This document shows positions 46,031-60,919 of a stretch of 64,000 nt of DNA, piece after piece (position 1 is the first letter of the stretch; each line of letters begins with the position of its first letter). The DNA comes from Dehalococcoidia bacterium. GTDB lineage: Bacteria; Chloroflexota; Dehalococcoidia; SM23-28-2; RBG-16-64-32. Under the pieces are notes generated by a model that saw only the letters and a program-made list of their open reading frames with translations, made no database searches and was not told the DNA's origin. The DNA is taken from assembly GCA_030649945.1 (NCBI GenBank), contig JAUSFE010000104.1, forward strand, positions 6,004-70,003, read 5' to 3'. The position numbers were made by a program, and so were the translations under genes.

Positions 46031-46678
46031 TCATTCAATCACCAGGTCCAGCCACTGGCGGGAACAGGAGTGCAGGCCGCCGCGCTCCTGGCTGGAGCCT
46101 TCCCACACGGCGAAGGCCACCTTCGCCGGATGCGCGGAACTGAGCTTGACGTTCGTCTTTCCGTTCGCGGACAGCGGCCGGGCGAACACCACGTACCAGC
46201 GCCCGTCCTCCCAGCGCGCCCGCGCCTGCACCTGGCGCTCCGGTGAGTCCTCCTCGGTGCCGTAGCCCTGGCAGGACCTGTTCCGGGCCTCATCTGTCGC
46301 GAAGTTGGCCCGCCAGTACCAGGCGTTGATCGGCGAGCGCGGGGACCCCATCGTCTCCAGCGGCGCGTCGCCCTTCAGCGGGAAGATCACACTGGCGGCG
46401 TCCGGGAACACGGAGCCGTCCCCGAAGTCCGTGTCCTTGGATTCGTCGGGCCACTCCAGGCGGAACAGAATGTCGCGGGAGTTGTGGGCCGTCTGCACTT
46501 TCAGGTTGCGCACGGCGCCCACGGGCCGCCCGGCCCAGACAGTGCGGACGTAGCGCGACGGCTGCAGGTCCACGCGGGCGCCCGCCATACGCAGCTCCTC
46601 TGCCGGCACTTTCTTCCACTGGAAGGCGCCCGAATTCAAAAGGGTCTTCGTGGCAAGCTGTAACTTAACTGCTCTCAT
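46031..46678 (-). CDS. Heme-b gamma subunit, EB_dh (ethylbenzene dehydrogenase gamma) family, without signal peptide
   Basis: ...FPLKGDAPLETMGSP...WYWRANF...AFAVWEGS... matches the EbdC/DdhC/SerC fold; N-terminus MRAVKLQLATKTLLNSG lacks a hydrophobic h-region. Confidence 0.65.
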   Translation of the reverse strand: MRAVKLQLATKTLLNSGAFQWKKVPAEELRMAGARVDLQPSRYVRTVWAGRPVGAVRNLKVQTAHNSRDILFRLEWPDESKDTDFGDGSVFPDAASVIFPLKGDAPLETMGSPRSPINAWYWRANFATDEARNRSCQGYGTEEDSPERQVQARARWEDGRWYVVFARPLSANGKTNVKLSSAHPAKVAFAVWEGSSQERGGLHSCSRQWLDLVIE

Positions 46679-46755
46679 CAGGCTTCTCCCCGGCTAGACT
46701 GGCCTCCAGCTCGTCTTGGGCTCGCGTTCTTTATCGTTCATAGCGCTCCGGGGCG

Positions 46756-47484
46756 TCAGTCGGGCAAAGGCCGGATTTGAAGGTCGGGGTTTTCCCTACA
46801 CTCCTTCAGCCACTCCAGGTCCCGCCGGCAAAACTCCCCCGCGAAGTCCAGCAGCGCGCCGTAGAAGAGCGAGGGCTCCGCGGCGGCGGCCGCCCGGTCC
46901 CGCAGCCGGGGCAGCCAGCGGCAGAGGCGGCGGCCCAGGAAGTCCGCCTGCGCCAGCGTTAGCTCCGCGCTGGTGCCGCCGCCCGCCGCCTGCTTGAAGG
47001 CGAGGTAGTGCATGAACTCCAGCTCCGTGCAGAGGTGGTCCGGCCGGTCCCCCGCCCCGGCTTGCAGCCCGAAGTGCTCGTAAAAGCGCACCAACTCCTC
47101 CATGATCTTCATCCGCCCCGCGCGGTGCGATCCCTCGTAGAGCGGGCAGAACGGCGTGCCGGCCCCCACCTCGAACAGGCGGAGGTAGTCGTGCTCCAGC
47201 GCCGGATAATCGCGCCCGCGGGCGCCGGCTGCGCCCAGCTCTCCCAGCGCGGGCAGCTCAAACGGCAGGTGCGCCGCGGCGGAGGCAAGGTCGTCGCCGA
47301 GGCTGGCGGAGGCGAGGCTGGGCGTCGGGAAATCGAAAGCGCGTGCCAGCAGGCCGTAGACGTGGCTACGGGCAGCCGCCGCCGTCTCGCCGGGGCCCTG
47401 CACGGCGATCCGGGCCAGGTAGCTCACACCGGCCTCTTCAGCGTGCCCGGGTCCCGTGTGAAGCCGCCGAACATGCTCTTCCAC
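46756..47484 (-). CDS. TorD/NarJ-like chaperone (delta), second copy
   Basis: ...YLRLFEVGAG...ELEFMHYLAFKQ...; paralogue of 44205-44873. Confidence 0.65.
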   Translation of the reverse strand: MEEHVRRLHTGPGHAEEAGVSYLARIAVQGPGETAAAARSHVYGLLARAFDFPTPSLASASLGDDLASAAAHLPFELPALGELGAAGARGRDYPALEHDYLRLFEVGAGTPFCPLYEGSHRAGRMKIMEELVRFYEHFGLQAGAGDRPDHLCTELEFMHYLAFKQAAGGGTSAELTLAQADFLGRRLCRWLPRLRDRAAAAAEPSLFYGALLDFAGEFCRRDLEWLKECRENPDLQIRPLPD

Positions 47485-48476
47485 TCGTACGCGATGAGCG
47501 TGTCCAGCATCTCGGACTTCTCGCCCCGCCGCGTCTTCGCCATCTCGGTGCGGAGCGTGTCCAGCACGCGGTTCACGTCCGGCCCGAAGAGCGACTCCAG
47601 GTACTGGCGGGGAATGCGTTCCGACCCTTCGATAACGTCGCCGTTGTCGTCGAACAGCGGCGGCGAGAGCGGGGGCACGTAGTACATGTTGGGCTCCGTG
47701 CCGAACTCAGGGTGCAACGGGATGGCCACCTTCCACACCTTCACCAGTTTGTGGACGGCGCTCTCCTCGTCGTCCAGGAAGCCGATGAAGCGCACCCGGC
47801 CGGGGCACTGGCGGAAGCAGGCGGGGGCCACGCCCTGCTCAATGCGCGGGTAACAGAGGATGCACTTCTGGGAGACCTTCTTCGCCTGGTTGAAGTAGAT
47901 GCGCTTGTAGGGGCAGGCCTCCATGCAGAAGCGATAGCCGCTGCAGCGCTCCTCGTCTATCAGCACAATGCCGTCGTCCACGCGCTTGTAGATGGCCTGG
48001 CGCGGGCAGGCGGCCAGGCAGGCCGGGTTGGTGCAGTGCATGCAGATCATCTGCAGGTAGAAGAAGTAGGAGTTGGGGTAGGCGCCGCTGGCCTGGTCCT
48101 CGTCCCAGAGGGGGCCCCAGTTGTCGTCCCCGGTCTTCGGCTGCAGGTGCTGGTTCATGCCCTGTCCGCCGTAGAGCACATCCTCGTAGTTGAACTCCCA
48201 GGCGTGCCCAAACTCGCTCAGCTTTGGCAGCCGGCTGGGGCGCGGCTCCCCGTCCTGAAAGCCACCGCTCAGTTTCTGCCAGCCCCTGGGCGTGCCCTCG
48301 CCGGGCATTGTGGAGACGATGTTCCACCACATGTACTCCATACCCTCTTCGTCGGTCCAGAGCGTCTTGCAGGCGATGGTACAGGTCTGGCAACCCAGGC
48401 ACTTGTTCATGTCGAAGACAGCGGCCAGCTGTCTCTTGACTGGCGGCGGCTGGACGGGCACGGCCCTAGCCCTCAA
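47424..48476 (-). CDS. Fe-S beta subunit, second copy (350 aa)
   Basis: CLGCQTCTIACK, CMHCTNPACLAACP, CSGYRFCMEACPY, CILCYPRIEQGVAPACFRQCP. Confidence 0.85.
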   Translation of the reverse strand: MRARAVPVQPPPVKRQLAAVFDMNKCLGCQTCTIACKTLWTDEEGMEYMWWNIVSTMPGEGTPRGWQKLSGGFQDGEPRPSRLPKLSEFGHAWEFNYEDVLYGGQGMNQHLQPKTGDDNWGPLWDEDQASGAYPNSYFFYLQMICMHCTNPACLAACPRQAIYKRVDDGIVLIDEERCSGYRFCMEACPYKRIYFNQAKKVSQKCILCYPRIEQGVAPACFRQCPGRVRFIGFLDDEESAVHKLVKVWKVAIPLHPEFGTEPNMYYVPPLSPPLFDDNGDVIEGSERIPRQYLESLFGPDVNRVLDTLRTEMAKTRRGEKSEMLDTLIAYEWKSMFGGFTRDPGTLKRPV

Positions 48477-49113
48477 TCTCCAGCGGCTGCCACTCCAGCG
48501 TCACCGCCTTCAGGCCGGCGCGCTCGCCGCCGGACCCTTGCCACACGGCGAACGCCACCTTCCCCTGCTGCCCGGGGTGGAGCGCCGCCACGTCCGCCGT
48601 CTCCGCCCACATCCGGCGCGAAATCACCACGCTCCAGCCGCCGGCGCCGTAGACGCCGCGGCCGCTGACGCCGCCGTTCGCGCTGCGCACCGTGGTCCCG
48701 AGGCCGCGGGCCGTGACGCTGAACGGCGCCTCCAGGTCGGGCCGCCAGTACCAGGCGTTCACCGGGTAGTCCGGGGAGCCCATGCTCAGGAGCGGCGCAT
48801 CGCCCTTCACCGGGAGCAGCACCGCCGCCGCGTCCGGGAACTGGTCCGTGTCCGCAATCTCGTCGTCCTTCGTATCGTCCGCCCAGCTCAGGCGGAAGAA
48901 GATGGCTGCTTCGTTGTGCGCGGCCTGCACCGCCACCTGCTTCGTTACCCCGTAAGGCCGGTCCGCCCAGGAGGCCTGGACATAGAGGGACGGTTGAGCG
49001 CCCAATGGAGTCGGTTCAAGGAGCACAGTCTCCTGGGGGACCGGCCGCCATTCGGGGGCGGCGGGGTCCAGCAGCCGGGAGCTATCAGCGCTGAGACGCC
49101 TGACCCTAACCAC
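48466..49113 (-). CDS. EB_dh-family heme-b gamma subunit, second copy, without signal peptide
   Basis: ...LPVKGDAPLLSMGSPDYPVNAWYWR...AFAVWQGS...; paralogue of gamma1. Confidence 0.6.
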   Translation of the reverse strand: MVRVRRLSADSSRLLDPAAPEWRPVPQETVLLEPTPLGAQPSLYVQASWADRPYGVTKQVAVQAAHNEAAIFFRLSWADDTKDDEIADTDQFPDAAAVLLPVKGDAPLLSMGSPDYPVNAWYWRPDLEAPFSVTARGLGTTVRSANGGVSGRGVYGAGGWSVVISRRMWAETADVAALHPGQQGKVAFAVWQGSGGERAGLKAVTLEWQPLEIEG

Positions 49114-49303
49114 AACCCCAGTCTGGCCGCCGCCCCAGAGGCCCGTCTATCGGGCAGCGCCAGTCATTGGCCTGTGGGGAAAAGCCTGACCCTTGACGCC
49201 GCAGTTTGCCCGATAGACAGGCCCCGACGCCGGTCACGAGACTGAGACCTGACGGTAAGGAGACGGCAGCAGCCCCGCAGCGGGCTTAGGCGAGGAGCAG
49301 GCT

Positions 49304-50362
49304 ATGACCATCGATCTGAAAGAGGGCGCGCCCGCACAGGCGCAGCCCCTGGACCTGAGCTGGCTGGACCTGGAGAACACCTGGGGTGTCCGCGCCAAGC
49401 CCGGGCGCCGGGGCCTCACGCTGGAGGAGATCGAGATCGGCCCGAACGCCCCGGCGCCGACCACCGACAACCAGAGCGCGCGGACGCGCGGAGCGCTCCG
49501 GCGCAGCGCCGCGCCCAGGGTGGGGCACCCGTACACGGCCAAGTCAGAGGTCTGGGCGGCCAATGCGGCCATGCTCTACGAAGAGGCCGTGCAGCGCCAG
49601 TGGTCCTCCGCCACTGACATCCCCTGGGAGACCCTGCAACCGCTGCCCGATGACATGGAGCGGGCCATGTGCCAGCTCTGCACGTTTCTCACGGAGATCG
49701 AGTTCATCGCCGGCGACGTGCCCGGCATGTGGCTGCCGGAAGTGAACAGCGAGTACCACGAGATCAAGCTCTTCCTGCTCACCCAGATCATGGACGAGGC
49801 CCGCCACCTGGACGTCTTCCGCAAGCGGGCCTTCGCCAACGGCGGCGGCCTGCTCAGCGGCGGCCCCGGCCTGGGCCTGCGCGCGATCCTGGAGTCCACG
49901 AATTACTCGGAGATGTCGGCCCTCATGCACGTTCTGGCGGAAGGCTTCATCCAGTCCGTCTTCCGCATGGGCGAGTACATAGCCCAGAACGAGGCGGAGA
50001 AGCGTATCTTCCGGCTCTGCGCGCAGGACGAGTCCCGCCACGTGGCCTACGGCGTGATGCACCTGAAGTACCTGGGGGAGAACGAGCCCGAGCGGCGCGA
50101 GGAGGTGCACTACTACCTGGACCGCGCCGAGGGCGTCTTCAGCTTCGACGACAGCCCCGCCGCGGCGGACCTTTCGGAGGCGCTCGCCATCCTCATGGCC
50201 GGCGGCCTGAGCAACCTGGACCGCGGCATCCCGATGGCGATGGCCGTACGCCGCAAGCAGGTCAACGAGTACATGCATCGCCTGGACGTGGCCGGCTTCG
50301 GAGACCGCCGCGACCGCATGCACCCGCTGCTTAAGGCGTTCCTCGACCCACCCAGGAATTAA
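49304..50362 (+). CDS. Ferritin-like diiron-carboxylate protein (putative oxygenase/oxidase; family unresolved)
   Basis: Two ExxH motifs (MDEARHLDVF, AQDESRHVAYG) plus upstream Glu residues (TEIEF, LAEGF) in a helical scaffold; start may lie downstream of the annotated ATG. Confidence 0.55.
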   Translation: MTIDLKEGAPAQAQPLDLSWLDLENTWGVRAKPGRRGLTLEEIEIGPNAPAPTTDNQSARTRGALRRSAAPRVGHPYTAKSEVWAANAAMLYEEAVQRQWSSATDIPWETLQPLPDDMERAMCQLCTFLTEIEFIAGDVPGMWLPEVNSEYHEIKLFLLTQIMDEARHLDVFRKRAFANGGGLLSGGPGLGLRAILESTNYSEMSALMHVLAEGFIQSVFRMGEYIAQNEAEKRIFRLCAQDESRHVAYGVMHLKYLGENEPERREEVHYYLDRAEGVFSFDDSPAAADLSEALAILMAGGLSNLDRGIPMAMAVRRKQVNEYMHRLDVAGFGDRRDRMHPLLKAFLDPPRN

Positions 50363-50384
50363 CGTCCCACGCTAGGAGGCGGCG

Positions 50385-51977
50385 ATGCCCGACGCGACCT
50401 ACGACGCCATCATCATCGGGGCCGGCCATAACGGCATGGCCCTGGGCGCTTACCTGGCCAAGGGCGGCTGGGACGTCGCCATCTTCGAGAAACGAGCCGA
50501 GGAGGGCGGCGGCCTCTGCACAGAGGAGCTGACCCGCCCCGGCTTCCTGCACAACCTCCACTGCAACTACCACACGCTGGTGGGCGTCTGCCCCGTCTAC
50601 GACCACCTGGAGCTGGCAGACAAGCACGGCCTGCGTTACGTGCGGCCCCCCGTGCAGATGGCCTCCATCTTCAGCGATGGCACCGCCCTCACCGTGCACA
50701 CCGACCTGGAGAAGACGTGCGCCTCCATCGCCCGCTTCTCGCCGAAGGACGCAGACACCTTCCGCCGCCTGTACCAGGAGACGAAGGGCTACCTGGACAT
50801 GATCCTCCTCACCCTCATGTACACCCCGCCGATCTCCATGCGCGACATCACCAAGGCCCTGGTGTCGTGGGGCATCGAGGAGAAGAGCGAGTTCCTGAGC
50901 GTCCACCTGCGGCGCCTGAGCATCAACGAGTTCCTGGACCAGCACTTCGAGAACGAGCGGGTGAAGGCGCACCTGGCTTTTCACGCCTCGGTGGCCGGCT
51001 ACTCTACGGATCGCAAAGGGCTGGCGGTATCTCTCCCGCTGCTCATCGGCAAGATCGATAACTGGCACCTCTGCATCGGCGGCTCGCACGCGCTGGCCCA
51101 CGCCATCTGGGAATCCTTCGCCCAGGCGGGGGGCCGCGTTTTCCTGAACCACGGTGTGGACCAGATCCTGGTGGAAGACGGGAAGGCGGCAGGCGTCAGG
51201 CTGCAGGACGGCAGCGTCGCGCGCGCCCGCCACCTGGTGGCCAGCTCCATCAGCCTGGAGCAGACCTTCCTGCAGATGCTAGACCCCAAACTGCTGGCCG
51301 CAGAGTTCGTGAAGGAAGTGCAGGGCTTCCCGCATATGGACTGGTCCTTCTTTAGCGTGCACCTGGCCCTGGCGCGCAAGCCGGACTACAAGGCCGCGCA
51401 GTTCGATCCGGACGTGAACGACGCCTGGGTCATCAACCTGGGCTACGAATCCCCGGAGGACATCAACCGCCACTGGCGGGACGTGCGCGCCGGCAAGCTG
51501 CCGGACCCGCGGCCCAACGTCGCCGTCAACTCACTCTTCGACCCCACCGATGCGCCAGACGGCTCTTACACCGGCCTGATCCGGCACTTCGCCCCGTTCA
51601 GCCTGGCGACGGGCGGCCCCGAGGCCTGGGACGAGATGGCGGAAGGTTACGGCCGGCGCTGCATAGAGAAGTGGCAGGAGGCGGCCCCGAACCTGAACAA
51701 CGGCGCCATCCTGGACTGGGCCACGTACACCCCGCTCGACATCTCCCGCCGCATGCCCAACATGGTCCGCGGCGACTGGATGGGCGGCCTGATAGACCTG
51801 GACAACATGCTGGACCAGCGCCCCTTCCCGGCGCTCTCCCAGTACAAGAGCCCTATCGACAAGCTCTACATGTGCGGCGCCACCCAGCATCCGCACGGCT
51901 TCGTCACCTTCGCGCCCGCCTTCAACGCCCTCCAGGTCATCGCGGACGACTACGGGCTTGAGCGCTGGTGGAGGTGA
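50385..51977 (+). CDS. FAD-dependent oxidoreductase, phytoene-desaturase (CrtI)-like family, copy 1
   Basis: N-terminal Rossmann motif YDAIIIGAGHNGMALGAYLAKGGWDVAIFEKRAEEGGG; ~530 aa. Confidence 0.75.
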   Translation: MPDATYDAIIIGAGHNGMALGAYLAKGGWDVAIFEKRAEEGGGLCTEELTRPGFLHNLHCNYHTLVGVCPVYDHLELADKHGLRYVRPPVQMASIFSDGTALTVHTDLEKTCASIARFSPKDADTFRRLYQETKGYLDMILLTLMYTPPISMRDITKALVSWGIEEKSEFLSVHLRRLSINEFLDQHFENERVKAHLAFHASVAGYSTDRKGLAVSLPLLIGKIDNWHLCIGGSHALAHAIWESFAQAGGRVFLNHGVDQILVEDGKAAGVRLQDGSVARARHLVASSISLEQTFLQMLDPKLLAAEFVKEVQGFPHMDWSFFSVHLALARKPDYKAAQFDPDVNDAWVINLGYESPEDINRHWRDVRAGKLPDPRPNVAVNSLFDPTDAPDGSYTGLIRHFAPFSLATGGPEAWDEMAEGYGRRCIEKWQEAAPNLNNGAILDWATYTPLDISRRMPNMVRGDWMGGLIDLDNMLDQRPFPALSQYKSPIDKLYMCGATQHPHGFVTFAPAFNALQVIADDYGLERWWR

Positions 51978-51983
51978 GGCTGG

Positions 51984-52481
51984 TTGGCGGCCCCGGCCGT
52001 GCGGGTGAGGCTGGCCGATGGCGCCCGCAGCGGCCTGGCCAGCATGGTGCAGCAGTTCCTCGAGCAGGACCTGACGGACTTCGAGGGCAAGCGCCGGCGG
52101 GCCTCGCGCCTGCGGGGCAAGCTGGCGATGACGGCCGTGGACCACGAGGTTACCGTCACCCTGGAGTTCGCCGGCGACCAGATCAGCATCTGGGACGGCG
52201 AGCGCGCGCCGCTGGACGCCTCTATCGCCGGCCCCTACCGCTCGCTGGTCGGCCTGCTGCAGGGAGAATCGCACCCGCTCGTCGAGCACCTGCGCGGGCG
52301 GCTGCGCGTGCGCTCCAGCCTGCGCAAGCCTTTTTTCCCGCTGCGGGTGCACGGCCTGATGAAGCTGCCACCGGTAGAGCGCGAGGCCAGGGCGCGCCCG
52401 CTCTGGGCCTACGCAGCGGCGGCCGGCCTGGCGGCCGCAGCAATCTCGGGAGCGGTCGCGGCCGCTCTCCTGCTCACTTGA
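51984..52481 (+). CDS. SCP2 sterol/lipid-carrier-like domain protein
   Basis: ...ASIAGPYRSLVGLLQGESHPLVEHLRGRLRVRSSLRKPFFPL... resembles the SCP2 C-terminal alpha/beta sandwich. Confidence 0.5.
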   Translation: MAAPAVRVRLADGARSGLASMVQQFLEQDLTDFEGKRRRASRLRGKLAMTAVDHEVTVTLEFAGDQISIWDGERAPLDASIAGPYRSLVGLLQGESHPLVEHLRGRLRVRSSLRKPFFPLRVHGLMKLPPVEREARARPLWAYAAAAGLAAAAISGAVAAALLLT

Positions 52482-52493
52482 GGGAGGTCTGAC

Positions 52494-54098
52494 ATGCCGG
52501 ACGCCACATACGATGCGATAGTGATCGGCGGGGGCCACAACGGCCTCTGCACCGCCGCCTACCTGGCCCGCGCCGGCCTCAAGGTGGGCGTCTTCGAGCG
52601 CCGCCACGAGGAGGGCGGCGGCGCTCACACGGAAGAGGCCACGGTGCCGGGCTTCTGGCACAACCTCCATGCCCAGTACATGGAGTTCATCGATTACATG
52701 CCCTTCTACCACGACTTTGAGCTGCCCAAGTTCGGCGCCCGCATGATCAAGCCGGAGGCCCAGGTGGGCATCGCCTTCGCGGACGGCCGGCCGCCGCTGG
52801 TCATCTACACGCCGGAGTTCGAAGACCGGACGTACAAGAGCATCGCGCAGTTCTCCAAGCACGACGCGGAGGTCTTCACGGAGGTCCGGCGCAAGGTGCT
52901 GGCGAAGGACCAGTACCTCGCCGCCATGCTCTATACCCCGCCGCCCGACGAGTCCAGAAGCGAGACGGCCGGGGCGATCGCCGGCAAGCTGTTCGAGCTG
53001 TGGATGGAGCTGGGCTTCAAGCCGGGCGAGCTGCAGAAGTCGCCCAAAGTGCTGATCGACGACCTCTTCGAGTCCACGGAGATGCGGGCGGTCATGTACC
53101 GGCAGTGCATCGAGTGGGGGTCCAACCTTCACTCCGGCAACGGCGTGGGCTTCATCATCTCCGTCATCTGGCTCTGCGGCATCCACTACATGGCGGTCGG
53201 CGGCACCCATACCCTCGCCCACGCCATGGCCAGCGCCGCCCTGCATGAGGGCGTGGACCTGCGCTACAACGCCCCCGTGACCCAGATTCTGACCACCAAT
53301 AACCACACCACCGGCGTGCGCCTGAAGGACGGCCGGGTCATCGAAGCGAAGATCGTCGCCTCCAACGCGGACCCGCGGACGACGTTCATGGACATGATCG
53401 GCTGGGACAAGCTCTCGCTCTTCCGCAAGGAGCGCCTGGCCAACTGGCGCTTCGGCCCGGAGCACGTCCTGGGCACGCCTTCCTTCGCCTTGCACGAGCC
53501 GCCGGACTACAAGTCCGCAAAGCGCGACCCGGCCATCAACAAATGCTTCTACACGATCGTCGGCTTTGAGAACGCCCAGGAGGTCAACAACTACATAGAG
53601 CAGGCGTACGGCAGCCGCGTGCCGGAGACGCCCGGCGCCGGCACCTGGGTGAACACGCTGTGGGACCCCAGCCAGGCGCCGCCCGGCAAGCATGCCATGA
53701 ACGGCTGGTTCTTCTTCCCCAAGGCCTCCTCGCTGACGCCGGCCGAGTGGGACGACGTGCGCTCCACCTACAACAGCCGCTTCCTGAGCCTCTGGGCCCG
53801 GTACGCGCCCAATATGACCCGCGAGAACGTCATCGCCGAGAAGCTGTACGTCCCCTTCGACATCGAGAAGAAGATTGGCATGCCGGAGGGTGACTTTTCG
53901 CACGGGCGGCCCGGCTCCATGGTGCTGGGGGTCCCGCGCGCCTACAGCTACCGGACGGAGATCGAAGGCCTGTACATGTGCGGGGCCTCCGCGGGCGGCG
54001 GCGGCCTGAGCGCCGCGCCGGGCTACAACGCCTTCAAGGTCATCGCCGACGACAACGGCCTGGCGAAGGTCTGGCAGCGGGAGGACCGCATCTATTAG
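52494..54098 (+). CDS. FAD-dependent oxidoreductase, CrtI-like family, copy 2
   Basis: YDAIVIGGGHNGLCTAAYLARAGLKVGVFERRHEEGGG; paralogue of 50385-51977. Confidence 0.75.
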   Translation: MPDATYDAIVIGGGHNGLCTAAYLARAGLKVGVFERRHEEGGGAHTEEATVPGFWHNLHAQYMEFIDYMPFYHDFELPKFGARMIKPEAQVGIAFADGRPPLVIYTPEFEDRTYKSIAQFSKHDAEVFTEVRRKVLAKDQYLAAMLYTPPPDESRSETAGAIAGKLFELWMELGFKPGELQKSPKVLIDDLFESTEMRAVMYRQCIEWGSNLHSGNGVGFIISVIWLCGIHYMAVGGTHTLAHAMASAALHEGVDLRYNAPVTQILTTNNHTTGVRLKDGRVIEAKIVASNADPRTTFMDMIGWDKLSLFRKERLANWRFGPEHVLGTPSFALHEPPDYKSAKRDPAINKCFYTIVGFENAQEVNNYIEQAYGSRVPETPGAGTWVNTLWDPSQAPPGKHAMNGWFFFPKASSLTPAEWDDVRSTYNSRFLSLWARYAPNMTRENVIAEKLYVPFDIEKKIGMPEGDFSHGRPGSMVLGVPRAYSYRTEIEGLYMCGASAGGGGLSAAPGYNAFKVIADDNGLAKVWQREDRIY

Positions 54099-54161
54099 TG
54101 CACCGTTTCCAAGTCACCTTGACTGTACCCCGCTGTACTTTGAGCGCGGTGCCATCCCGTC

Positions 54162-54248
54162 TGTCATCCCGAGCACGACGGCATCTGCCACGCGGCTCTG
54201 CGCAGCTTCGCGAGGGATCTGGGGTGGGGCAGACCTGCGAGCGAGGGA
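54162..54248. repeat. Repeat element copy 2 (core 'cttcgcgagggatctggggtggggcagacc')
   Basis: Matches 221-250 near the window start; shares the flanking 'tgtcatcccgagc' motif. Confidence 0.55.
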
Positions 54249-54350
54249 CGATGGCGCGCCCAAACCCCTCGTGTACCGTCCCTCACTTCAAGGGTGCGCC
54301 GTGGCAAGGCTGTTCTTGAGACACTACACCAGGAGGTAAAGGGGAGTCTA

Positions 54351-54803
54351 ATGGCTGCAATCTATACAACGCAGTGGTACGAGGAGCTGAAAGAGCTCCT
54401 GAACGGCAACCCGGAGGTGGAGAGGAATGCCCCCAGGGGCAAGTACAGGGTGCTGGCGGAGATACTGGGGGACGGCTCTTCGCCCTACTTGAAGGAGGGC
54501 GAGCAGCGGTTCTTCACGGTGGACCTCACCGATGGCCGCTGCACGGAGTACCAGGAGGTGACGGAGGCGCCGCCGCGCAAGGCCTTCGACTTCATCTTCG
54601 AGGTCCCTGCCTCCATCTTCGAAGGCATCGCGGCCGGGCTGGTGGACCCCGTCAACGCCGGGCTCAAGGGGACGATCAAGATCACCGGGGACATGCGCAT
54701 CCTGATCCGGCACGCCGACCTCGTGAACGTCCTCTACGATATCTACGCCAGGGAAGTGGACACCAGCTGGCCCAGCGGCAGGCCGCCCTACGGCCAAAAC
54801 TAG
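54351..54803 (+). CDS. SCP2-like lipid-carrier domain protein
   Basis: ...ASIFEGIAAGLVDPVNAGLKGTIKITGDMRILIRHADLVNVL... SCP2 signature; AGGAGG RBS before the ATG at 54351. Confidence 0.55.
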   Translation: MAAIYTTQWYEELKELLNGNPEVERNAPRGKYRVLAEILGDGSSPYLKEGEQRFFTVDLTDGRCTEYQEVTEAPPRKAFDFIFEVPASIFEGIAAGLVDPVNAGLKGTIKITGDMRILIRHADLVNVLYDIYAREVDTSWPSGRPPYGQN

Positions 54804-54824
54804 CGGCGAATAACCAGCGCCGCC

Positions 54825-55250
54825 TCAGCCGGCGGCCGGCCAGCTCTCGGCCACCAGCTCGTCGAGCTGCGTCTCCGCCTGTTCCTTGGCGATGCAGGTG
54901 TAGCCCCAGCGCTTGCGCACGGCCTCCCGGTAATCGTCGGAGTACTCGCTCAGGAGGACGATCACGTGCAGCCTGGGAAAGGCATCTGCCAGGCGGCGCA
55001 GACGCGCGGCGCTCTGGTTGACTACGAGGTCGAAATCCAGCAGGGCGATATCCGGGTCGGTCCTGCGGGCCAGCCTCACGGCCTCCGTCAGCGTGGCCGC
55101 CTCACCCATGATGTTGCAGTGGGCGTGGTGGCTCAGCACGCGGCGCAGGGTCTCCCGGTAATGCGCGTTCCTGTCGGCAATCAGCACGCGGACCGGGGCG
55201 CACCCTCCGCGCGCCGATGGCGAAGGTCCGGATTTCCTCTGAATACTCAC
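54825..55250 (-). CDS. Stand-alone CheY-like receiver-domain protein
   Basis: VLIADRN...DIALLDFDL...VIVLLSEY...IAKE receiver signature residues. Confidence 0.55.
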   Translation of the reverse strand: MSIQRKSGPSPSARGGCAPVRVLIADRNAHYRETLRRVLSHHAHCNIMGEAATLTEAVRLARRTDPDIALLDFDLVVNQSAARLRRLADAFPRLHVIVLLSEYSDDYREAVRKRWGYTCIAKEQAETQLDELVAESWPAAG

Positions 55251-55399
55251 GGCTGATCAACCCCAAGCATCGGGCCGCAGGGGTCTCCCTGTCTGTCGGG
55301 CAATGGTAGACTTCCCTGTAAGGCAGCCCCTATCTGCGGTAGGGCGTCGCCCCACCGGCCTCCACCACCGCGATGCTATAATCAGGCTGCCAGCAAGAA

Positions 55400-56557
55400 G
55401 TGGAACTTAATGTGGTAGTGAACGCAGAGAAGATGTGGGAGCCCGCGGTCCGGGCGGTGGACCTTGGCCAGACCCTACAGGCGCTCGCACACGGAGAGCG
55501 ACTGAAGATAGTGCGCTTCCTCCTTAACCGCGAGGCCACCGCCGGGGAGATAGCGGACGCCCTGGCGATCGGCGCCGGGCAGGCCCGTCGCCAGCTGCGC
55601 GCCCTCACCGCGGCCGGCCTGGTGGATTCCTATCCCAGCGCTGAGGGCGAGCGCTTCAAGCTGGACCAGCAGGCGGTAGCGCTGGTCAGTGCCTCCGTGG
55701 TCCGCCTGCTGACGCCTCCGCCCGGCGGCGCCAGACGCCCGGTCCTGGCCGGCAGCGACGGCGCCGACGTGTTCACCATTCGCGTTCCCGATGCGCCTGA
55801 CGCCTGCCTTTCCTGCCAGAACTCCCCTTTCGTGGCGAAGGTCCTGGACGACCTCGACACCGTGCTGCGCGAGGCGCGCGCCTACCACTCCCGCCTGCTC
55901 CAGCTCTCCTCGCAGGTGCTGACCGCCCACGAGGCGGAACGCAAGCGCATCGCCCGCGAGCTGCACGACGATACGGCCCAGTCCCTTACCTCTATCCTCG
56001 TCCGCCTGCGGCTGCTGGAGCGCTCTCTGAAGAGCAGCGAATCGCGGCGCAAGGTGGAGGAGCTGCACGACCTGACCGGCACGGCGCTCGATTCCGTGCG
56101 GCGGATGGCGGTGGACCTGCGCCCCACGGCCCTCGACGACCTGGGCCTGGAAGCTGCCCTCCGCTCCTACATCGAGAATTTCTGCTCCAGTTGGCCGGTG
56201 CAGGTGCGTTTCTCCACGACCAACATCCGGCGCCGGCTGCCCCCGGACGTCGAGCTGGTGCTCTACCGCGTGGCGCAGGAGGCCCTGTCCAACATCGCCA
56301 AACACTCCTCTGCCAGCTCGGCTGAGGTCTCCCTGGGCAGGCGCAACAACATTGTGACCCTGACGATCAGAGATGACGGACGCGGCTTTGACCCGGCCAA
56401 CCTGACGCCGTCGTCCGGCGGCGGGCTCGGCCTCTTCGGCATGCGCGAGCGCATGAGCCTGGTCGGCGGATCGCTGGAGATCGATTCGGCGCCGGACAGC
56501 GGCGCCCGGATTACGGGCCGCGTCTCTTTACGCGGGCGGGCCGGGGCTGCAAGATAG
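55400..56557 (+). CDS. Cytoplasmic sensor histidine kinase (HisKA_3/NarX-type) fused to an N-terminal ArsR-type HTH domain
   Basis: N-terminus ...LKIVRFLLNREATAGEIADALAIGAGQARRQLRALTAAGLV; H-box ELHDDTAQSLTSI; HATPase_c G-boxes; no TM segments. Confidence 0.75.
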   Translation: MELNVVVNAEKMWEPAVRAVDLGQTLQALAHGERLKIVRFLLNREATAGEIADALAIGAGQARRQLRALTAAGLVDSYPSAEGERFKLDQQAVALVSASVVRLLTPPPGGARRPVLAGSDGADVFTIRVPDAPDACLSCQNSPFVAKVLDDLDTVLREARAYHSRLLQLSSQVLTAHEAERKRIARELHDDTAQSLTSILVRLRLLERSLKSSESRRKVEELHDLTGTALDSVRRMAVDLRPTALDDLGLEAALRSYIENFCSSWPVQVRFSTTNIRRRLPPDVELVLYRVAQEALSNIAKHSSASSAEVSLGRRNNIVTLTIRDDGRGFDPANLTPSSGGGLGLFGMRERMSLVGGSLEIDSAPDSGARITGRVSLRGRAGAAR

Positions 56558-56563
56558 GTCGCG

Positions 56564-57220
56564 ATGGAAAGTAAGATCCGCATCCTCCTGGCAGATGACC
56601 ACGCCATCCTGCGCTCCGGCTTGAAGGCTCTGCTGAACATGGAGCCGGACCTGAAGGTGGTGGGCGAGGCGTCCAATGGCCGCGAGGCGGTGGACATGGG
56701 GCGGACCCTGAAGCCGGACGTCATCGTCATGGACATCTCCATGCCGGAGATGGACGGCCTCAAGGCGGCGCAGGAGATGCACAACACCGGCCTCGCCTCC
56801 AAGATCGTCATGCTCACCGTCCACGCCGACGAGGACTACCTTTTTCAAACCCTCAGGTTCGGCGCCTCCGGCTACGTCCTCAAGAGCTCCGCCGACACCG
56901 AACTGATAGACGCCATCCGCACCGCGCACCGCGGAGAGGTCTTCCTCTACCCCTCGGCGGTCAAGAAGCTCCTCGGTGAGTACCTGAAGGGCGGCAGCGA
57001 GGGCCGGGAGGAGCGCGACGTCCTCACCAGCCGCGAGCGCGAGGTGCTGAAGCTGACGGCGGAGGGCTTCACGAACAACGAGATCGCCGAGCAACTGGTG
57101 ATCAGCCCCAAGACGGTGGACACTTACCGCCAGCGCATCATGGAGAAGCTGAACCTGCACCACCGCTCAGAGCTCGTCCGCTACGCGCTGCGCAAGGGCC
57201 TCCTGGTTCCCCAGGAGTAA
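56564..57220 (+). CDS. NarL/FixJ (LuxR)-family response regulator
   Basis: Receiver ...ILLADDH...VIVMDISMP...; C-terminal LuxR HTH ...LTSREREVLKLTAEGFTNNEIAEQLVISPKTVDTYRQRIMEKL. Confidence 0.9.
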   Translation: MESKIRILLADDHAILRSGLKALLNMEPDLKVVGEASNGREAVDMGRTLKPDVIVMDISMPEMDGLKAAQEMHNTGLASKIVMLTVHADEDYLFQTLRFGASGYVLKSSADTELIDAIRTAHRGEVFLYPSAVKKLLGEYLKGGSEGREERDVLTSREREVLKLTAEGFTNNEIAEQLVISPKTVDTYRQRIMEKLNLHHRSELVRYALRKGLLVPQE

Positions 57221-57354
57221 CCCCACATCCACTGTCGGGTAAATTCCGACCGTAAGTCCCGCTCCGCCTGACAGACGCCGCCCCGTCCCGCTGCCTAATG
57301 TGGTGCCAGACAGGGGCGAGGCCGCCACGGCTGCCCGCTCAGAAAGGGACGCGG

Positions 57355-57870
57355 ATGGTACCGGTCATCAGCTTTGTAGGGAACTCCGGCGTGGGCAAGA
57401 CCACTTTCCTGGAGAAGCTTGTCCCCGTGCTCAAGGCGCGCGGCTACCGCGTTGCTGCCATCAAGCACGATGTCCACAACTTCACGGTGGACTACCCCGG
57501 CAAGGACTCGTGGCGCCTGACCCAGGCCGGCAGCGATGTCGTTATCCTGTCCTCCCCCAGCCGGCTCGCCCTCATGGAAGACGTGCGGGATGAGCGTACC
57601 CTGGAGCAGTTGGCGGAGATGGTCTCGGACCGCGCCGACATCGTCGTCACAGAAGGTTACCGTGGCGCTTCCGCGCTTAAGGTCGAGGTGTCGCGCCGGG
57701 CCCACAGCACGGTGCTCACGGCGCGCCTGGATGACCTGATGGCCATCGTCACCGACCATCCCTTCGACCTCAACACACCTCAGTTCGACCTCGACGATGC
57801 CCCGGCCGTGGCCGATTTCCTGGAGCAGCGCTTCGCCCTCAAGCCGCGGCGGCAGCTCTCCTGCAAGTGA
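57355..57870 (+). CDS. mobB: Molybdopterin-guanine dinucleotide biosynthesis adaptor protein MobB
   Basis: MVPVISFVGNSGVGKTTFLEKLVP...RVAAIKHD Walker A P-loop. Confidence 0.8.
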   Translation: MVPVISFVGNSGVGKTTFLEKLVPVLKARGYRVAAIKHDVHNFTVDYPGKDSWRLTQAGSDVVILSSPSRLALMEDVRDERTLEQLAEMVSDRADIVVTEGYRGASALKVEVSRRAHSTVLTARLDDLMAIVTDHPFDLNTPQFDLDDAPAVADFLEQRFALKPRRQLSCK

Positions 57871-58105
57871 GCGCTGCGGCGCCCGGCCGGGAATCCCGCC
57901 CCGGCGCCGGGCCACTACGCAAACGAGCATCGCCTGACAGGGTTGGGGGTGAGGGTGGGGGAAAACCCGACAGACAAATCCGTGCCTGCCTGACTGACCG
58001 CCTCCCTCGCGCTGCGGATACTCGTAGGGAGCGCCCCGCCAGACCGGGCGGGCAGCTCAGAAGAAGTGCGATCACACGCAACCCAGACAACGCCGGGAGG
58101 TACAC

Positions 58106-60907
58106 ATGGTGACCAGGGCCCAGACAAACGGCAACGGAGCGTGGGCCGAGCGGTACCGCGACAAGTGGAAGTGGGACAAGGTCACCTGGGGCAGCCACTC
58201 CGTAGACTGCTACCCCGGCGGCTGCCCGTACCGCGTCTATGTGCGCGACGGCAAGATCATGCGTGAAGAGCAGTCCGGCTCCTTCGACGTCGTCCAGGCA
58301 GGCGTGCCGGACATGAACCCCATGGGCTGCCAGAAGGGCGCCTGCTGGGGCTACCAGCACTACGGGCCGGATCGCGTTACCCAGCCCCTCAAGCGCGTGG
58401 GCGAGCGGGGAGAAGGCAAGTTCGAACCCGTCTCCTGGGACGTGGCCCTCAAGGACATCGCGGACGCCATGCTGGACGCCGCAGTGGACCAGGGGCCGGA
58501 GTCCATCATCACCCTCATGACGCCGGAGCCCGGCGCCGCCCCCTCCCGCGCCTTCATGGGCGTGCTCGGCTCTCCACTCACCGACGGCAACGCGGAGTTT
58601 CAGGACTGGAGCCCCGGCTACTACCTCACCTGGGGCAAGTTCAACCCCGTCTCTTCCATGGATGACTGGTTCCTGGCCGAACTAACATTGATCTGGCACT
58701 GCAACCCCGTCTACACCAACATCCACTGGTTCCACTACGTGAACGAGTCGCGCTACAACGGCGGCGAGGTCATCACCATCGCCCCGGACTACAGCCCCTC
58801 CAGCATCCACTCGGATCACCACGTGCCGGTGCGCATCGGCACCGACGCGGCGCTGGCGCTTTCGATGTGCAAGGTGGTCATCGACGAGGGCCTCTACAAG
58901 AAGAAGTTCATCCAGGAGCAGACCGACCTGCCGATGCTTGTGCGCAAGGACACCGGACACTTCCTGCGCGGCAACGAGGTGAACGCCGGCGACCGCGAAG
59001 ACCAGTTCTTCTGGCTGGACAGCAAGTCGCGGCAGGTGGTCCCCGCGCCCAGGGGCACCCTGGCCATGGGCGATGTGGACCCGGCCCTGGAGGGCACCTA
59101 CAAGGCCAGGCTGGTGGACGGCTCCGAGGTGGAGGTGCAGCCGGTCTTCGAACGCCTGCGGGAGTCTCTCAAGGACTACGACCCCGAGGAGGCAGCGAAG
59201 GTCTGCGAGGTGAGCGCGGACATGATCCGCATGATCGCGCGCAAGGCGGCGGTCAAGCGGACGAAGATCTTCAGCGGCTGGAACTCCGGCAAGTACTACC
59301 ACGGCGACCTCATGGAGCGCTCCATGGCCCTGCTCCTGGCGCTCACCGGCAACTGGGGCAAGCAGGGCACAGGCACACGCTCCTGGGCCATCAGCGGCCT
59401 GGATGGGCTGGCCTTCCTCACCTCCAAGGGCAAGCCGGGGCAGGACGCCGCGCGCGAGTTCCAGCGTCAGACGCTCGCCATGCGCCGCCTGCTCAGCCAG
59501 GAAGACCCCACCATGACCATGGAGATGGTCCTGAACCGCGCTCAGGAGATGGGCGCCGGGCGCATGGCCGGCTTCGGCGGCATGATCCCGCCGGCCTTCC
59601 TCTGGTACCACCAGTTTGGCTACAAGGAACGCTGGAACCGCGAGGACTGGTCCGATCCGACCATGAAGCGCAGCTTCGACGAGTACTACCAGGAGGCCAT
59701 GGACAAGGGCTGGTGGGACAACCACATGGCCAAGGTCTGGAAGGACGTGGAGCCGCGCGTGCTGGTGGAGGCCGGCGGCAACGTCCTGCGCCGCCACCGC
59801 GGCGGCCAGGTGATGCTGCTGAAGCACCTCTGGCCCAAGCTCAAGATGATCGTCTCCATTGACTTCCGCATCAACACCACGGGCCTGCACTCGGACTACA
59901 TCCTGCCCGCCGCTCAGCACTACGAGAAGCTGGGCAACAGCATGCCCTCCGTCCACCATCTGAACTTCGTCCTCATCGATAAGGCCGTGGACCCGCCCGG
60001 CGAGGCCAAGTCCGACCGCCAGATCGGCCACATGCTCGTCAAGGCGCTGGAGCAACGGGCGCAGGAGCGCGGCATCAAGGAGATCAAGAACCACGCCGGG
60101 CAGACCATCCCCTTGCAGGGCGCCTACGACCGCATGACGCTGAACGGTTTCCTAAAGGACGACGAAACGGAGTTCGACGAGGCCATCAAGGACACGGCCG
60201 CCTACGGCATCATTCCCGAGGGCAACAGCCTGGAGACCCTCCGCGAGAAGGGGCACGTGCGCTGGACCGCCTGGGGCATCGCCGGCTTCGGCCTGGCCCA
60301 GGCCTCCACCATCGAGCCCGACAAGACGCACAACCCCTTCCGCTGGCACACGGAGGACAAGGTGCCCTACCCCACGCTGACGCGCCGCGCCCAGTTCTAC
60401 ATCGACCACGACTGGTTCATCGAGGGGGGCGAGGCGCTGCCGGTGCACAAGGAGAACCCGCACCACGGCGGCAACAGGGCCTTCCGGCTGACCAGCGGCC
60501 ACCCGCGCTGGAGCATCCACTCCATGAACATGACCAACAACATCATCCTCAACACCCACCGCGGCGAACCGTTCATCTTCATCAACCCGGACGAGGCCGC
60601 CCGGCGGGGGATCGAGAACGGCGAGGAGGTGCGCCTGACCAGCGACGCGGGCTCCATGCTCATTACGACAAAGCTGTCCGCCTCTGTGCGGCCGGGCCAG
60701 ATCATCCTCTACAACGGCTTCGAGCCCTACCAGCACCGCGAGTGGTACGCCCAGGGAGACGTGGAACCCGGCATGGTGAAGTGGCTGCACCTGGCCGCGG
60801 GCTACGGCCACCTGAAGTACCGGCCGTGGCACTGGCAACCGGTGCCCGTGGACAGGGGCGTGGGTGTGGACATCGAGAAGCTGCCGGCGACGGCGAAGGC
60901 CGGCTAA
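58106..60907 (+). CDS. Type II DMSO-reductase-family molybdopterin alpha subunit, paralogue 3 (no Tat signal)
   Basis: MVTRAQTNGNGAWAERYRDKWKWDKVTWGSHSVDCYPGGCPYRVYV...; 933 aa; ~230-nt leader. Confidence 0.8.
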   Translation: MVTRAQTNGNGAWAERYRDKWKWDKVTWGSHSVDCYPGGCPYRVYVRDGKIMREEQSGSFDVVQAGVPDMNPMGCQKGACWGYQHYGPDRVTQPLKRVGERGEGKFEPVSWDVALKDIADAMLDAAVDQGPESIITLMTPEPGAAPSRAFMGVLGSPLTDGNAEFQDWSPGYYLTWGKFNPVSSMDDWFLAELTLIWHCNPVYTNIHWFHYVNESRYNGGEVITIAPDYSPSSIHSDHHVPVRIGTDAALALSMCKVVIDEGLYKKKFIQEQTDLPMLVRKDTGHFLRGNEVNAGDREDQFFWLDSKSRQVVPAPRGTLAMGDVDPALEGTYKARLVDGSEVEVQPVFERLRESLKDYDPEEAAKVCEVSADMIRMIARKAAVKRTKIFSGWNSGKYYHGDLMERSMALLLALTGNWGKQGTGTRSWAISGLDGLAFLTSKGKPGQDAAREFQRQTLAMRRLLSQEDPTMTMEMVLNRAQEMGAGRMAGFGGMIPPAFLWYHQFGYKERWNREDWSDPTMKRSFDEYYQEAMDKGWWDNHMAKVWKDVEPRVLVEAGGNVLRRHRGGQVMLLKHLWPKLKMIVSIDFRINTTGLHSDYILPAAQHYEKLGNSMPSVHHLNFVLIDKAVDPPGEAKSDRQIGHMLVKALEQRAQERGIKEIKNHAGQTIPLQGAYDRMTLNGFLKDDETEFDEAIKDTAAYGIIPEGNSLETLREKGHVRWTAWGIAGFGLAQASTIEPDKTHNPFRWHTEDKVPYPTLTRRAQFYIDHDWFIEGGEALPVHKENPHHGGNRAFRLTSGHPRWSIHSMNMTNNIILNTHRGEPFIFINPDEAARRGIENGEEVRLTSDAGSMLITTKLSASVRPGQIILYNGFEPYQHREWYAQGDVEPGMVKWLHLAAGYGHLKYRPWHWQPVPVDRGVGVDIEKLPATAKAG

Positions 60908-60919
60908 AGGAGACAAGCC

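Follow-up and report, generated by a model that had tools for sequence, protein, structure and literature searches.

The 64,000 nucleotides of DNA analysed here (the window) belong to a metagenome-assembled genome (MAG) of the Dehalococcoidia, in which they lie on a contig of 172,898 bp; the window proteins are exact matches to GenBank MDO8616287-MDO8616303, and an origin in Sterolibacterium was rejected. Our subject is a run of nine genes at 49304-57870, which is flanked by the genes of several paralogous molybdenum (Mo) hydroxylases of the ethylbenzene dehydrogenase (EBDH) type. We show that these nine genes are three separable modules, and not one conserved unit: a four-gene cassette in which two flavoproteins, A and B, alternate with two SCP2-like lipid carriers; a ferritin-like gene; and a lineage-specific two-component system together with mobB. 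On balance, we are inclined to read the locus as a composite of these modules beside a multi-paralogue EBDH-type Mo hydroxylase locus, in which flavoenzyme and Mo enzymes would mount an O2-independent attack on a hydrophobic, isoprenoid- or sterol-like compound. What appears to be new is the interleaving of flavoprotein and SCP2 genes in one cassette, which is spread widely among uncultured phyla. In our literature search we found no description of the cassette, of EBDH-type enzymes in Chloroflexota, or of CtmAB with SCP2, beyond the studies of the delta-24 steroid desaturase (hereafter delta-24-SD) from Sterolibacterium denitrificans (Zhan et al., J Biol Chem 2024, PMC11061730) and of CtmAB of Castellaniella defragrans (Petasch et al. 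2014, PMC4109377).

A conserved cassette and two separable companions

The cassette flavoA-SCP2-flavoB-SCP2 spans 50385-54803, and its genes, with a repeat that lies among them, are as follows.

50385-51977, + strand: flavoprotein A, 530 aa, predicted CtmAB/delta-24-steroid-desaturase-type subunit (Pfam DAO/Amino_oxidase/NAD_binding_8)
51984-52481, + strand: SCP2-like protein 1, 165 aa, TTG start, predicted C-terminal transmembrane tail anchor (PF02036, E 0.0057 alone)
52494-54098, + strand: flavoprotein B, 534 aa, paralogue of A (FAD/NAD-Rossmann amine-oxidase-type domains)
54162-54240, no strand: short REP/MITE-like repeat, with a second copy at window 174-250
54351-54803, + strand: SCP2-like protein 2, 150 aa, soluble, with a conserved C-terminal WPKGKPPY (PF02036, 22.1 bits)

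Conservation was assessed in 83 cassette loci, 80 of which were retrieved by searching species-representative genomes with an alignment of flavoprotein B, and three by exact look-ups, with gene presence scored by tblastn of the window proteins. An exact look-up of alpha3 of the window in the contig index gave no match, and neighbourhoods were taken from homologues. The 80 loci of the scan belong to MAGs of Dehalococcoidia/Chloroflexota, Binataceae, Myxococcota, Acidimicrobiia/Actinomycetota, Poribacteria, Abyssobacteria and others. All four cassette genes were detected in 71 of the 83, and the order A-SCP2-B-SCP2 is kept almost everywhere; in the Actinomycetota loci L076-L084 the halves are swapped to B-SCP2(2)-A-SCP2(1), and each flavoprotein gene is still followed by a carrier gene. 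Intergenic gaps in the cassette of the window are 6-22 nt, save for an unusual one of 252 nt between flavoB and SCP2-like 2. This gap is filled by the repeat, an element of the form TGTCATCCYGAGC ... CTTCGCGARGGGATCTGGGGTGGGGCAGACC whose two copies in the window (54162-54240 and 174-250) have 36 nt at 94% identity in addition to the common head TGTCATCCYGAGC. In the 88%-identical relative L005 the same gap measures ~18 nt.

The companions of the cassette behave differently. An earlier note on this DNA had taken all nine genes for a single accessory module, which the neighbourhood search does not bear out: loci L001, L006 and L085 pull the modules apart, and most cassette loci have neither the ferritin-like gene nor the two-component genes, the latter accompanying the cassette in its closest relatives only. 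L001, whose ferritin-like protein is 84% identical, lacks the cassette but keeps Mo operon, ferritin-like gene, receiver, kinase and regulator, together with MobB and MobA. In L006 (88%) a gamma gene is followed directly by flavoprotein A, the ferritin-like gene being absent, and in L085 and L086 the ferritin-like gene stands beside gamma-beta-delta genes, after which unrelated genes follow. L087 and L005 repeat the gene order of the window, L087 (86% identity) as ferritin-flavoA-SCP2-flavoB-SCP2-receiver-kinase.

Genes were called by third-position GC (GC3), which amounts to 0.84-0.94 in the called frames of the nine genes, and domains were assigned by Pfam and NCBIfam profile searches against curated cut-offs. 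On this basis all nine genes are present on the strands previously given, and the flanks are as had been described, with a divergent Mo operon, a third alpha-beta pair, and a downstream pyridoxal phosphate (PLP) enzyme and acyl-CoA dehydrogenase. Small corrections apply to both SCP2 genes. The frame of SCP2-like 1 is 51984-52481, an overlapping open reading frame (ORF) at 51968-52492 having been rejected as the first SCP2 gene for lying in the wrong frame. The start of SCP2-like 2 is most likely 54351 and not 54294, given an AGGAGG ribosome-binding site and the family consensus MPxIYT. The true start of mobB is possibly near 57352.

Clustering of ORFs around the cassette brought out a recurrent set of non-Mo neighbours, two of which lie near the end of the window.

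62066-63220, + strand: PLP enzyme of the ACC-deaminase/D-cysteine-desulfhydrase family (PALP, 106 bits)
63339-64000, + strand: acyl-CoA dehydrogenase, N-terminal part, continuing beyond the window (assigned from its translation)

The acyl-CoA dehydrogenase family to which the gene at 63339 belongs is the commonest of them, occurring in 21 loci including the window and throughout Chloroflexota, Binatota, Myxococcota and Actinomycetota; a representative of the cluster matches Pfam Acyl-CoA_dh_N, _M and _1. Next in frequency come an SCPx-type thiolase, seen in 14 loci, and then an AMP-dependent ligase (12), enoyl-CoA hydratase (9), a short-chain dehydrogenase/reductase (9), MobB (8), aldehyde dehydrogenase (6) and the PLP enzyme (5). 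The last of these scores 183 bits with CuyA and 172 with XcbE, both below the cut-offs, and has ~50% identical copies in L007, L009, L010 and L020, a Dehalococcoidia sublineage in which it comes after cassette and MobB. Judging by these annotations, the set is what would be expected for oxidation of the terminal carbon of a hydrophobic chain to an acid, its activation with CoA and its shortening. Anaerobic sterol side-chain and monoterpene pathways follow this same logic of oxidation, CoA activation and shortening (PMC11061730, PMC4109377).

Flavoproteins A and B

Over their full length, A and B share 34% identity. Only the 165-aa SCP2-like gene separates their two genes, and both proteins start straight at the Rossmann dinucleotide-binding fold. 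Characterised enzymes of the CtmAB/delta-24-SD type likewise have two adjacent subunit genes, whose products are 26-27% identical. The term 'CrtI-like' applied to both in the earlier note is too loose. CrtO (NF045689) and crtI_fam (TIGR02734) are indeed their best-scoring NCBIfam models, but A and B reach only 226.7 and 154.4 bits with the former (cut-off 1000) and 102.1 and 84.3 bits with the latter (cut-off 238.1), and are therefore relatives, not members, of these carotenoid enzyme families. Sequence searches of the PDB gave 38-43 bits with CrtI/CrtD structures (43 bits for A with CrtI 4dgk), and found no CtmAB or delta-24-SD structure. When aligned with the two delta-24-SD subunits, alpha and beta, for which the sequences were taken from Table S2 of PMC11061730, A and B gave 28-32% identity over the full length and 160-214 bits (E 1e-47 to 1e-67), A having 32% identity and 214 bits with beta and 29% and 187 bits with alpha. 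These bit scores are four to five times above those with the CrtI structures.

The delta-24-SD of S. denitrificans is an alpha4beta4 enzyme with FMN bound covalently to a His in each subunit (PMC11061730). The flavinylation consensus of delta-24-SD and CtmAB is G-F-L/R-X-N/S-T/L-H-A, with FMN on His57/58, and that paper describes such a His motif only for these two, with PDS (phytoene desaturase) and CrtI holding their FAD non-covalently (PMC11061730). In our alignment the flavin-carrying His of both delta-24-SD subunits falls on His59 in A (GFLHNLHC) as well as in B (GFWHNLHA), the motif common to all being GF.(H/F)N(L/T)H. Each window protein departs from the consensus at one position, A to C in flavoprotein A and L/R to W in B, and GF.HNLH is invariant across an alignment of 19 homologues. 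The sequences thus place A and B with the covalently flavinylated CtmAB/delta-24-SD group, and each subunit probably carries its flavin covalently on the candidate His59. A and B resemble each other (34%) more than either resembles a delta-24-SD subunit; they therefore form a separate branch of this group, and are not orthologues of those subunits. Flavoprotein B homologues make up more than 6860 clusters at 90% identity, and the top 120 matches, 62-86% identical, are spread across phyla. Relatives of A and B are annotated by JGI as 'phytoene dehydrogenase-like', and our analysis corrects this routine annotation of such flavoprotein genes.

The interleaved SCP2-like proteins

That the cassette encodes two SCP2-like proteins, as had been claimed, is supported at the level of families. 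SCP2-like 2 passes the PF02036 cut-off of 21.3 bits narrowly (22.1 bits), and 25 of its 26 homologues match; SCP2-like 1 by itself stays below it (17.4 bits), and 30 of its 35 homologues match at E <=0.01, the best at 1.8e-7. As such, both appear to have the SCP2 sterol/lipid carrier fold. A profile-profile comparison with hhalign found the two families not detectably related to each other (probability 1.7%). The tail of SCP2-like 1, with a maximum Kyte-Doolittle 19-mer of 2.1 at residues 145-164, is kept in Chloroflexota, some Myxococcota, Poribacteria/Abyssobacteria and Actinomycetota, and is missing in Binataceae. In S. denitrificans the delta-24-SD genes SDENChol_21262 and 21263 are adjacent, with no SCP2 gene between them, so that the interleaved carriers are a distinguishing feature of the cassette.

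Mo enzymes beside the cassette

The Mo genes lie on both sides of the nine-gene run.

38386-49113, - strand: EBDH-type Mo operon gamma1-beta1-delta1-gamma2-beta2-delta2-alpha2-alpha1 (Pfam EB_dh, Fer4_11, Nitrate_red_del, Molybdopterin)
58106-61963, + strand: third alpha-beta pair, the alpha without twin-arginine translocation (Tat) signal and giving 741 bits with EBDH alpha 2ivf_A

In total the window holds three alphas, three betas, two gammas and two deltas, which were assigned through Pfam (alpha by Molybdopterin and Molydop_binding, beta by Fer4_11, gamma by the haem-b domain EB_dh, and the NarJ-like delta by Nitrate_red_del). They match the subunit types of EBDH-type hydroxylases, in which alpha has a bis-MGD domain and beta four FeS clusters. 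The three alphas (38386-41286 (-), 41385-44195 (-) and 58106-60907 (+)) are ~50% identical to each other. With TIGR03479, alpha1 scores 1023 bits (cut-off 985) and the signal-less alpha2 and alpha3 score 908 and 873 bits. With the EbdA equivalog model, all three stay far from the cut-off of 2000 at 766-858 bits (812-858 for the alphas of the operon), and they thus appear to be another member of the EBDH clade than EbdA. Of the alphas, only alpha1 has a twin-arginine motif (SRRTFLK). Alpha2 and alpha3, which are maximal ORFs, show none, nor do the two gammas have a signal peptide. Since they have no export signal, alpha2 and alpha3 are probably cytoplasmic, and may alternatively be exported by hitch-hiking. 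From the flavoenzyme, the tail-anchored carrier and the signal-less Mo enzymes together, we infer that the chemistry would take place at the inner face of the membrane. The gamma-beta-delta arrangement is also repeated in L001, L002 and L085, and the third alpha-beta arrangement occurs in L005 (alpha 83%, beta 86% identical).

In 30 loci the cassette has a full-length EBDH-type alpha homologue (36-83% identity) no more than 10 kb away; five of these alphas were checked, their best NCBIfam models being TIGR03479 and EbdA. An alpha or beta is present within this distance in 31 of all 83 loci, and in 19 of the 47 that have at least 8 kb of sequence on both sides. Within this full-flank set the link is seen in Chloroflexota (9/9), Binatota (5/23), Myxococcota (2/6) and Actinomycetota (3/6). 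To our knowledge, EBDH-type enzymes are uncommon in bacterial genomes, and the recurrence of the link in four phyla with divergent alphas, which is far above chance adjacency, therefore argues for a functional connection between cassette and Mo enzymes, albeit not an obligatory one. The link between the flavoprotein/SCP2 genes and the Mo enzymes, on which the earlier note had relied, is in this respect well founded.

Several further features surround the Mo genes. Upstream of the operon are two PD40 beta-propeller proteins, a cupredoxin and a MacB/FtsX-type ABC transporter (31218-34270 (-), 36507-36989 (+), 34390-36222 (+)), of which the cupredoxin could accept electrons from an exported Mo enzyme. 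GC is ~0.66-0.70 in the window except for an island at 24-31 kb; in this low-GC stretch (24000-31000, 0.56-0.60 vs ~0.67), 26062-30948 (-) codes for a 1628-aa RHS-repeat/DUF6531/dockerin protein. The relative L085 has RHS/YD-shell toxin and immunity genes (Imm52, Imm8) inserted between its two gamma-beta-delta sets.

The ferritin-like protein

The gene that opens the nine-gene run is transcribed away from the Mo operon.

49304-50362, + strand: ferritin-like diiron-carboxylate protein of 352 aa, its N terminus extended by a conserved stretch of ~100 aa

Its four-helix-bundle core has the metal ligands E, ExxH, E, ExxH. The nearest folds are those of aldehyde-deformylating oxygenase (ADO), R2lox and VlmB-type diiron oxidases, at 11-17% identity, from all of which the extra conserved N-terminal region of ~100 residues sets it apart; a sequence search of the PDB returned no match at E <=1, and the R2lox equivalogs NF006200 and NF006202 gave 28.6 bits (cut-off 194) and 22 bits (cut-off 315). 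The gene is absent within 10 kb in 82 of the 83 cassette loci, the exception being L036, where a 50%-identical copy lies 5 kb off, and we therefore rejected it as a member of the cassette on these neighbourhood data. Its own relatives were collected as 80 homologue loci from a metagenome scan (L087-L166). The 78 homologues at 58-68% identity have neither Mo nor flavoprotein neighbours: this wider family of uncharacterised diiron proteins, with the same ~100-aa N-terminal extension, is large and very conserved in Chloroflexota and keeps a neighbourhood of its own, with a PD40 beta-propeller protein downstream in 57 loci, as well as a small acidic membrane protein, a GNAT protein, a GT4 glycosyltransferase, a glycogen-debranching-like enzyme and a lipid A acyltransferase-like protein. 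Because only the subgroup of at least 84% identity adjoins the Mo operon, and a 66%-identical paralogue (P0078) is found elsewhere on the contig of the window, the gene in the window appears to have been recruited recently, as a paralogue that goes with the Mo operon and not with the cassette. It is probably co-regulated with that operon, in the lineage of the window only.

Two-component system, MobB and a promoter motif

The last module and the candidate operators of the locus are as follows.

54825-55250, - strand: stand-alone receiver-domain protein, convergent (PF00072, 36.3 bits)
55400-56557, + strand: histidine kinase with ArsR-type helix-turn-helix (HTH), HisKA_3 and HATPase_c (Pfam)
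56564-57220, + strand: NarL/LuxR-type response regulator (Response_reg 99 bits, GerE 83 bits)
57298-57870, + strand: MobB, helper of bis-MGD cofactor synthesis (PF03205, 145.9 bits)
49147-49156 (+) and 49207-49216 (-): inverted motif pair CTATCGGGCA, candidate operator, in the divergent intergenic region between gamma1 and the ferritin-like gene
55293-55302, + strand: motif copy CTGTCGGGCA, in the divergent intergenic region between receiver and kinase, upstream of a TATAAT box

Kinase and LuxR regulator are encoded 6 nt apart and pair HisKA_3/HATPase_c with receiver/GerE. The kinase is soluble, with no transmembrane segment, and its nearest NCBIfam model, MctS, gives 166 bits, which is below the cut-off. 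Its sensor architecture is unusual, the ArsR-type winged HTH being followed by a Cys-containing linker (CLSCQNSPF) before HisKA_3. A stand-alone receiver accompanies the kinase in L001, L005, L006 and L087, and orthologues of the LuxR regulator in L001 and L005 are 84-85% identical. MobB is far above the PF03205 cut-off of 26.6 bits and has the P-loop GNSGVGKT; it stands beside cassette and Mo genes in L002, L005, L007, L009, L010, L020 and L064.

Gamma1 and the ferritin-like gene are separated by a 190-nt divergent region with a perfect inverted pair, GTCTATCGGGCA and TGCCCGATAGAC, 50 nt apart. This pair does not vary between the window, L001, L085 and L006, although L006 has another gene downstream. 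Exact CTRTCGGGCA occurs at three sites in the 64 kb, where 0.42 are expected and none of 100 shuffles reaches three, and all three fall in two divergent promoter regions, that of the Mo operon and the ferritin-like gene and that of receiver and kinase. The motif is found at the same places in L001, L005, L006, L085, L086 and L087; in L005 and L087 the one between receiver and kinase is a direct pair 23 nt apart. Matches with two mismatches (e.g. at 63266 and 46755) do not exceed chance and were left aside. We infer that CTRTCGGGCA is an operator, most plausibly of the LuxR-type regulator, which would tie the two-component system to both the Mo operon and the divergent gene string. The proposal of a dedicated two-component system appears to hold, with one conserved motif common to both promoter regions. 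No RNA family was matched in an Rfam search of 48900-58300, a sigma-70 promoter scan gave no match, and terminator predictions were at background level save for a hairpin at 54819-54836, 3' of SCP2-like 2.

Discussion

How might these parts work together? The cassette would encode a heteromeric flavoenzyme of the CtmAB/delta-24-SD type that oxidises a C-H next to an existing double bond without O2, yielding either a conjugated diene, through desaturation, or an allylic alcohol, through addition of water. The two SCP2-fold proteins would hold the water-insoluble substrate, and SCP2-like 1, because it is anchored in the membrane by its tail, could pick this substrate up at the cytoplasmic face and hand it to the cytoplasmic flavoenzyme. 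The neighbouring alpha-beta-gamma Mo enzymes would hydroxylate the same carbon skeleton with water, by analogy with the Mo-dependent steroid C26 dehydrogenase 2 (S26DH2) that acts on the diene product of delta-24-SD. Oxidation of alcohol and aldehyde, CoA activation and beta-oxidation would then proceed via the recurrent acyl-CoA dehydrogenase, thiolase, ligase and hydratase. The ArsR-HTH kinase and the LuxR regulator would control the Mo operon and the string of ferritin-like gene and cassette through CTRTCGGGCA, and MobB would support the supply of Mo cofactor. A hydrophobic substrate subjected to hydroxylation or desaturation, as the earlier note suggested, is still the best reading. A diiron protein of the O2-using ADO/R2lox fold type is hard to accommodate in its 'anaerobic' scheme if this is to be purely so. 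The remark that the gene combination was not recognised as a described pathway stands for the SCP2-interleaved cassette, which was not found described in the literature searched, and falls short for the enzyme pair, which has a partial precedent because a homologue of A and B, delta-24-SD, works with a Mo-dependent C26 hydroxylase (PMC11061730).

Several observations weigh against this scheme. The substrate cannot be read from sequence. At ~30% identity to delta-24-SD, and with no orthology, the reaction of A and B could be desaturation, hydroxylation or ketolation, and their relatedness to CtmA and CtmB is indirect. A carrier role for SCP2 has no precedent here, the subunit genes of S. denitrificans having no SCP2 gene between them. 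Furthermore, ~60% of the full-flank cassette loci, among which are all but five of the 23 from Binatota, have no Mo enzyme within 10 kb, and the cassette therefore works without one in many organisms. The nearest structural relatives of the ferritin-like protein all use O2, which is a poor fit to a strictly anaerobic pathway, and the operator assignment comes from motif conservation only.

The Mo-free loci are what would be expected if the two systems were independent. Here, the cassette would be a beta-oxidation-associated flavoenzyme system for general lipid or branched-chain catabolism, with carriers of its own, and the EBDH-type enzymes would act on e.g. alkyl-aromatics, both having come to lie in a common island for hydrophobic catabolism without catalysing consecutive steps. 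Such independence would account for the 28 of 47 full-flank loci without Mo alpha or beta within 10 kb, for the low share in Binatota (5/23), for L003 and L004, where the cassette is accompanied by TetR, acyl-CoA and hydratase genes only, and for the close relatives L001 and L085, which keep the Mo operon without the cassette. Nevertheless, adjacency in four phyla with alphas of 36-83% identity, and in all nine full-flank Chloroflexota loci, is hard to explain without selection for co-inheritance, and there is a biochemical precedent for the enzyme pair in delta-24-SD and S26DH2 (PMC11061730). We therefore regard independence as rather unlikely, while considering it the most serious of the alternatives. 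At the other extreme, all nine genes could serve one pathway with the diiron protein as an integral part, e.g. as an O2-dependent hydroxylase or desaturase that provides an oxic alternative to the Mo enzymes. The ferritin-like gene does lie 22 nt upstream of flavoprotein A, reads the same way and has the motif-bearing divergent promoter region in common with the Mo operon, its nearest folds, ADO and R2lox, bind long-chain lipids, and L087 repeats the string from ferritin-like gene to kinase. This is outweighed by the distribution of the gene, which renders such a pathway improbable: all of the 83 cassette loci but L036 are without it within 10 kb, L006 moves from gamma to flavoprotein A with no ferritin-like gene in between, L001, L085 and L086 have it without the cassette, and the wider family at 58-68% identity sits in an unrelated, conserved and housekeeping-like neighbourhood.

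Slightly less probable still is an anabolic locus, in which the flavoproteins would be carotenoid or isoprenoid biosynthetic enzymes (a CrtO-like ketolase or a CrtI/CrtD-like desaturase) with SCP2 proteins holding the pigment. CrtO (227 and 154 bits) and crtI_fam (102 and 84 bits) are the best NCBIfam models, in keeping with the JGI label of the relatives, but these scores are far below the cut-offs of 1000 and 238, and delta-24-SD scores are four to five times those of the CrtI structures. The flavinylation His motif, in turn, is described only for delta-24-SD and CtmAB in the paper that gives PDS/CrtI a non-covalent FAD (PMC11061730). Moreover, no crtB, crtE or cyclase gene was seen among the recurrent neighbours of the cassette, which are catabolic.

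Our preferred reading of a composite locus with coupled flavoenzyme and Mo chemistry can be taken a step further, to a broader and more tentative proposal that we consider possible, though not favored. In it, the cassette would be a widespread O2-independent route against membrane-type isoprenoids, often working with cytoplasmic EBDH-type hydroxylases and with the tail-anchored SCP2 protein extracting the substrate. Its targets might be sterols, hopanoids, the side chains of carotenoids or quinones, or phytol-derived chains, and its hosts might be abundant uncultured Dehalococcoidia, Binatota, Myxococcota and Acidimicrobiia of soil, groundwater and sediment. O2-independent attack on unactivated isoprenoid or steroid carbon is known from a handful of cultured Proteobacteria, and it is a largely open question which organisms clear sterols, hopanoids and other isoprenoid lipids from soils, aquifers and sediments that are anoxic. 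The locus shows that relatives of the two enzyme types known for such chemistry, the flavin allylic oxidases of the CtmAB/delta-24-SD type and the EBDH-type Mo hydroxylases, are physically linked in many uncultured phyla, and a conserved cassette with lipid carriers of its own offers both a concrete, testable target and a marker for surveys.

Comparison with known systems

How the locus relates to described systems depends on the part considered. With the carotenoid enzymes CrtI, CrtD and CrtO, flavoproteins A and B have in common the fold of the flavoprotein superfamily and a predicted chemistry at allylic positions of isoprenoids, but they differ in scores far below the family cut-offs, in a flavin predicted to be covalent, and in a context without carotenoid biosynthesis. 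The Mo enzymes resemble EBDH and the steroid C25 and C26 dehydrogenases as type II DMSO-reductase family alpha-beta-gamma enzymes with a delta chaperone. The ebdABCD operon has the order alpha-beta-gamma-delta, whereas the window operon reads gamma-beta-delta-gamma-beta-delta-alpha-alpha, and its alpha2, like alpha3, lacks a twin-arginine signal.

As a whole, the closest described system is delta-24-SD with S26DH2, and the second closest is the ctm cluster. CtmAB of C. defragrans is a limonene dehydrogenase, which hydroxylates an allylic methyl group with water (PMC4109377), and like A and B it is a heteromeric COG1233 'phytoene-dehydrogenase-like' pair with the flavinylation motif in common (PMC11061730). 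A LuxR-family regulator also adjoins ctmABCDEFG, and the pathway goes on through alcohol and aldehyde dehydrogenases and a CoA ligase to beta-oxidation-like steps (PMC4109377). However, for CtmE and CtmF of the ctm cluster, a 2Fe-2S ferredoxin and a ferredoxin reductase, no counterpart was seen in the window module, and the cluster contains no Mo enzyme; its CtmC, CtmD and CtmG are uncharacterised small proteins.

The differences from S. denitrificans lie in the host, a betaproteobacterium as opposed to a Dehalococcoidia MAG, in the two of three window alphas without Tat signal, in the ~30% identity at which A and B match alpha and beta with no one-to-one correspondence, and in the two interleaved SCP2-fold genes of the window, one of them for a tail-anchored protein. 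Both systems have two paralogous subunits of ~57-63 kDa with the GF..N.H His near residue 58, paired in one organism with EBDH-family Mo hydroxylases of several alpha paralogues. In S. denitrificans, the diene formed by delta-24-SD is hydroxylated at C26 by the Mo-dependent S26DH2 (PMC11061730), and the window would likewise join a hydrophobic, isoprenoid-type substrate to later CoA activation and beta-oxidation.

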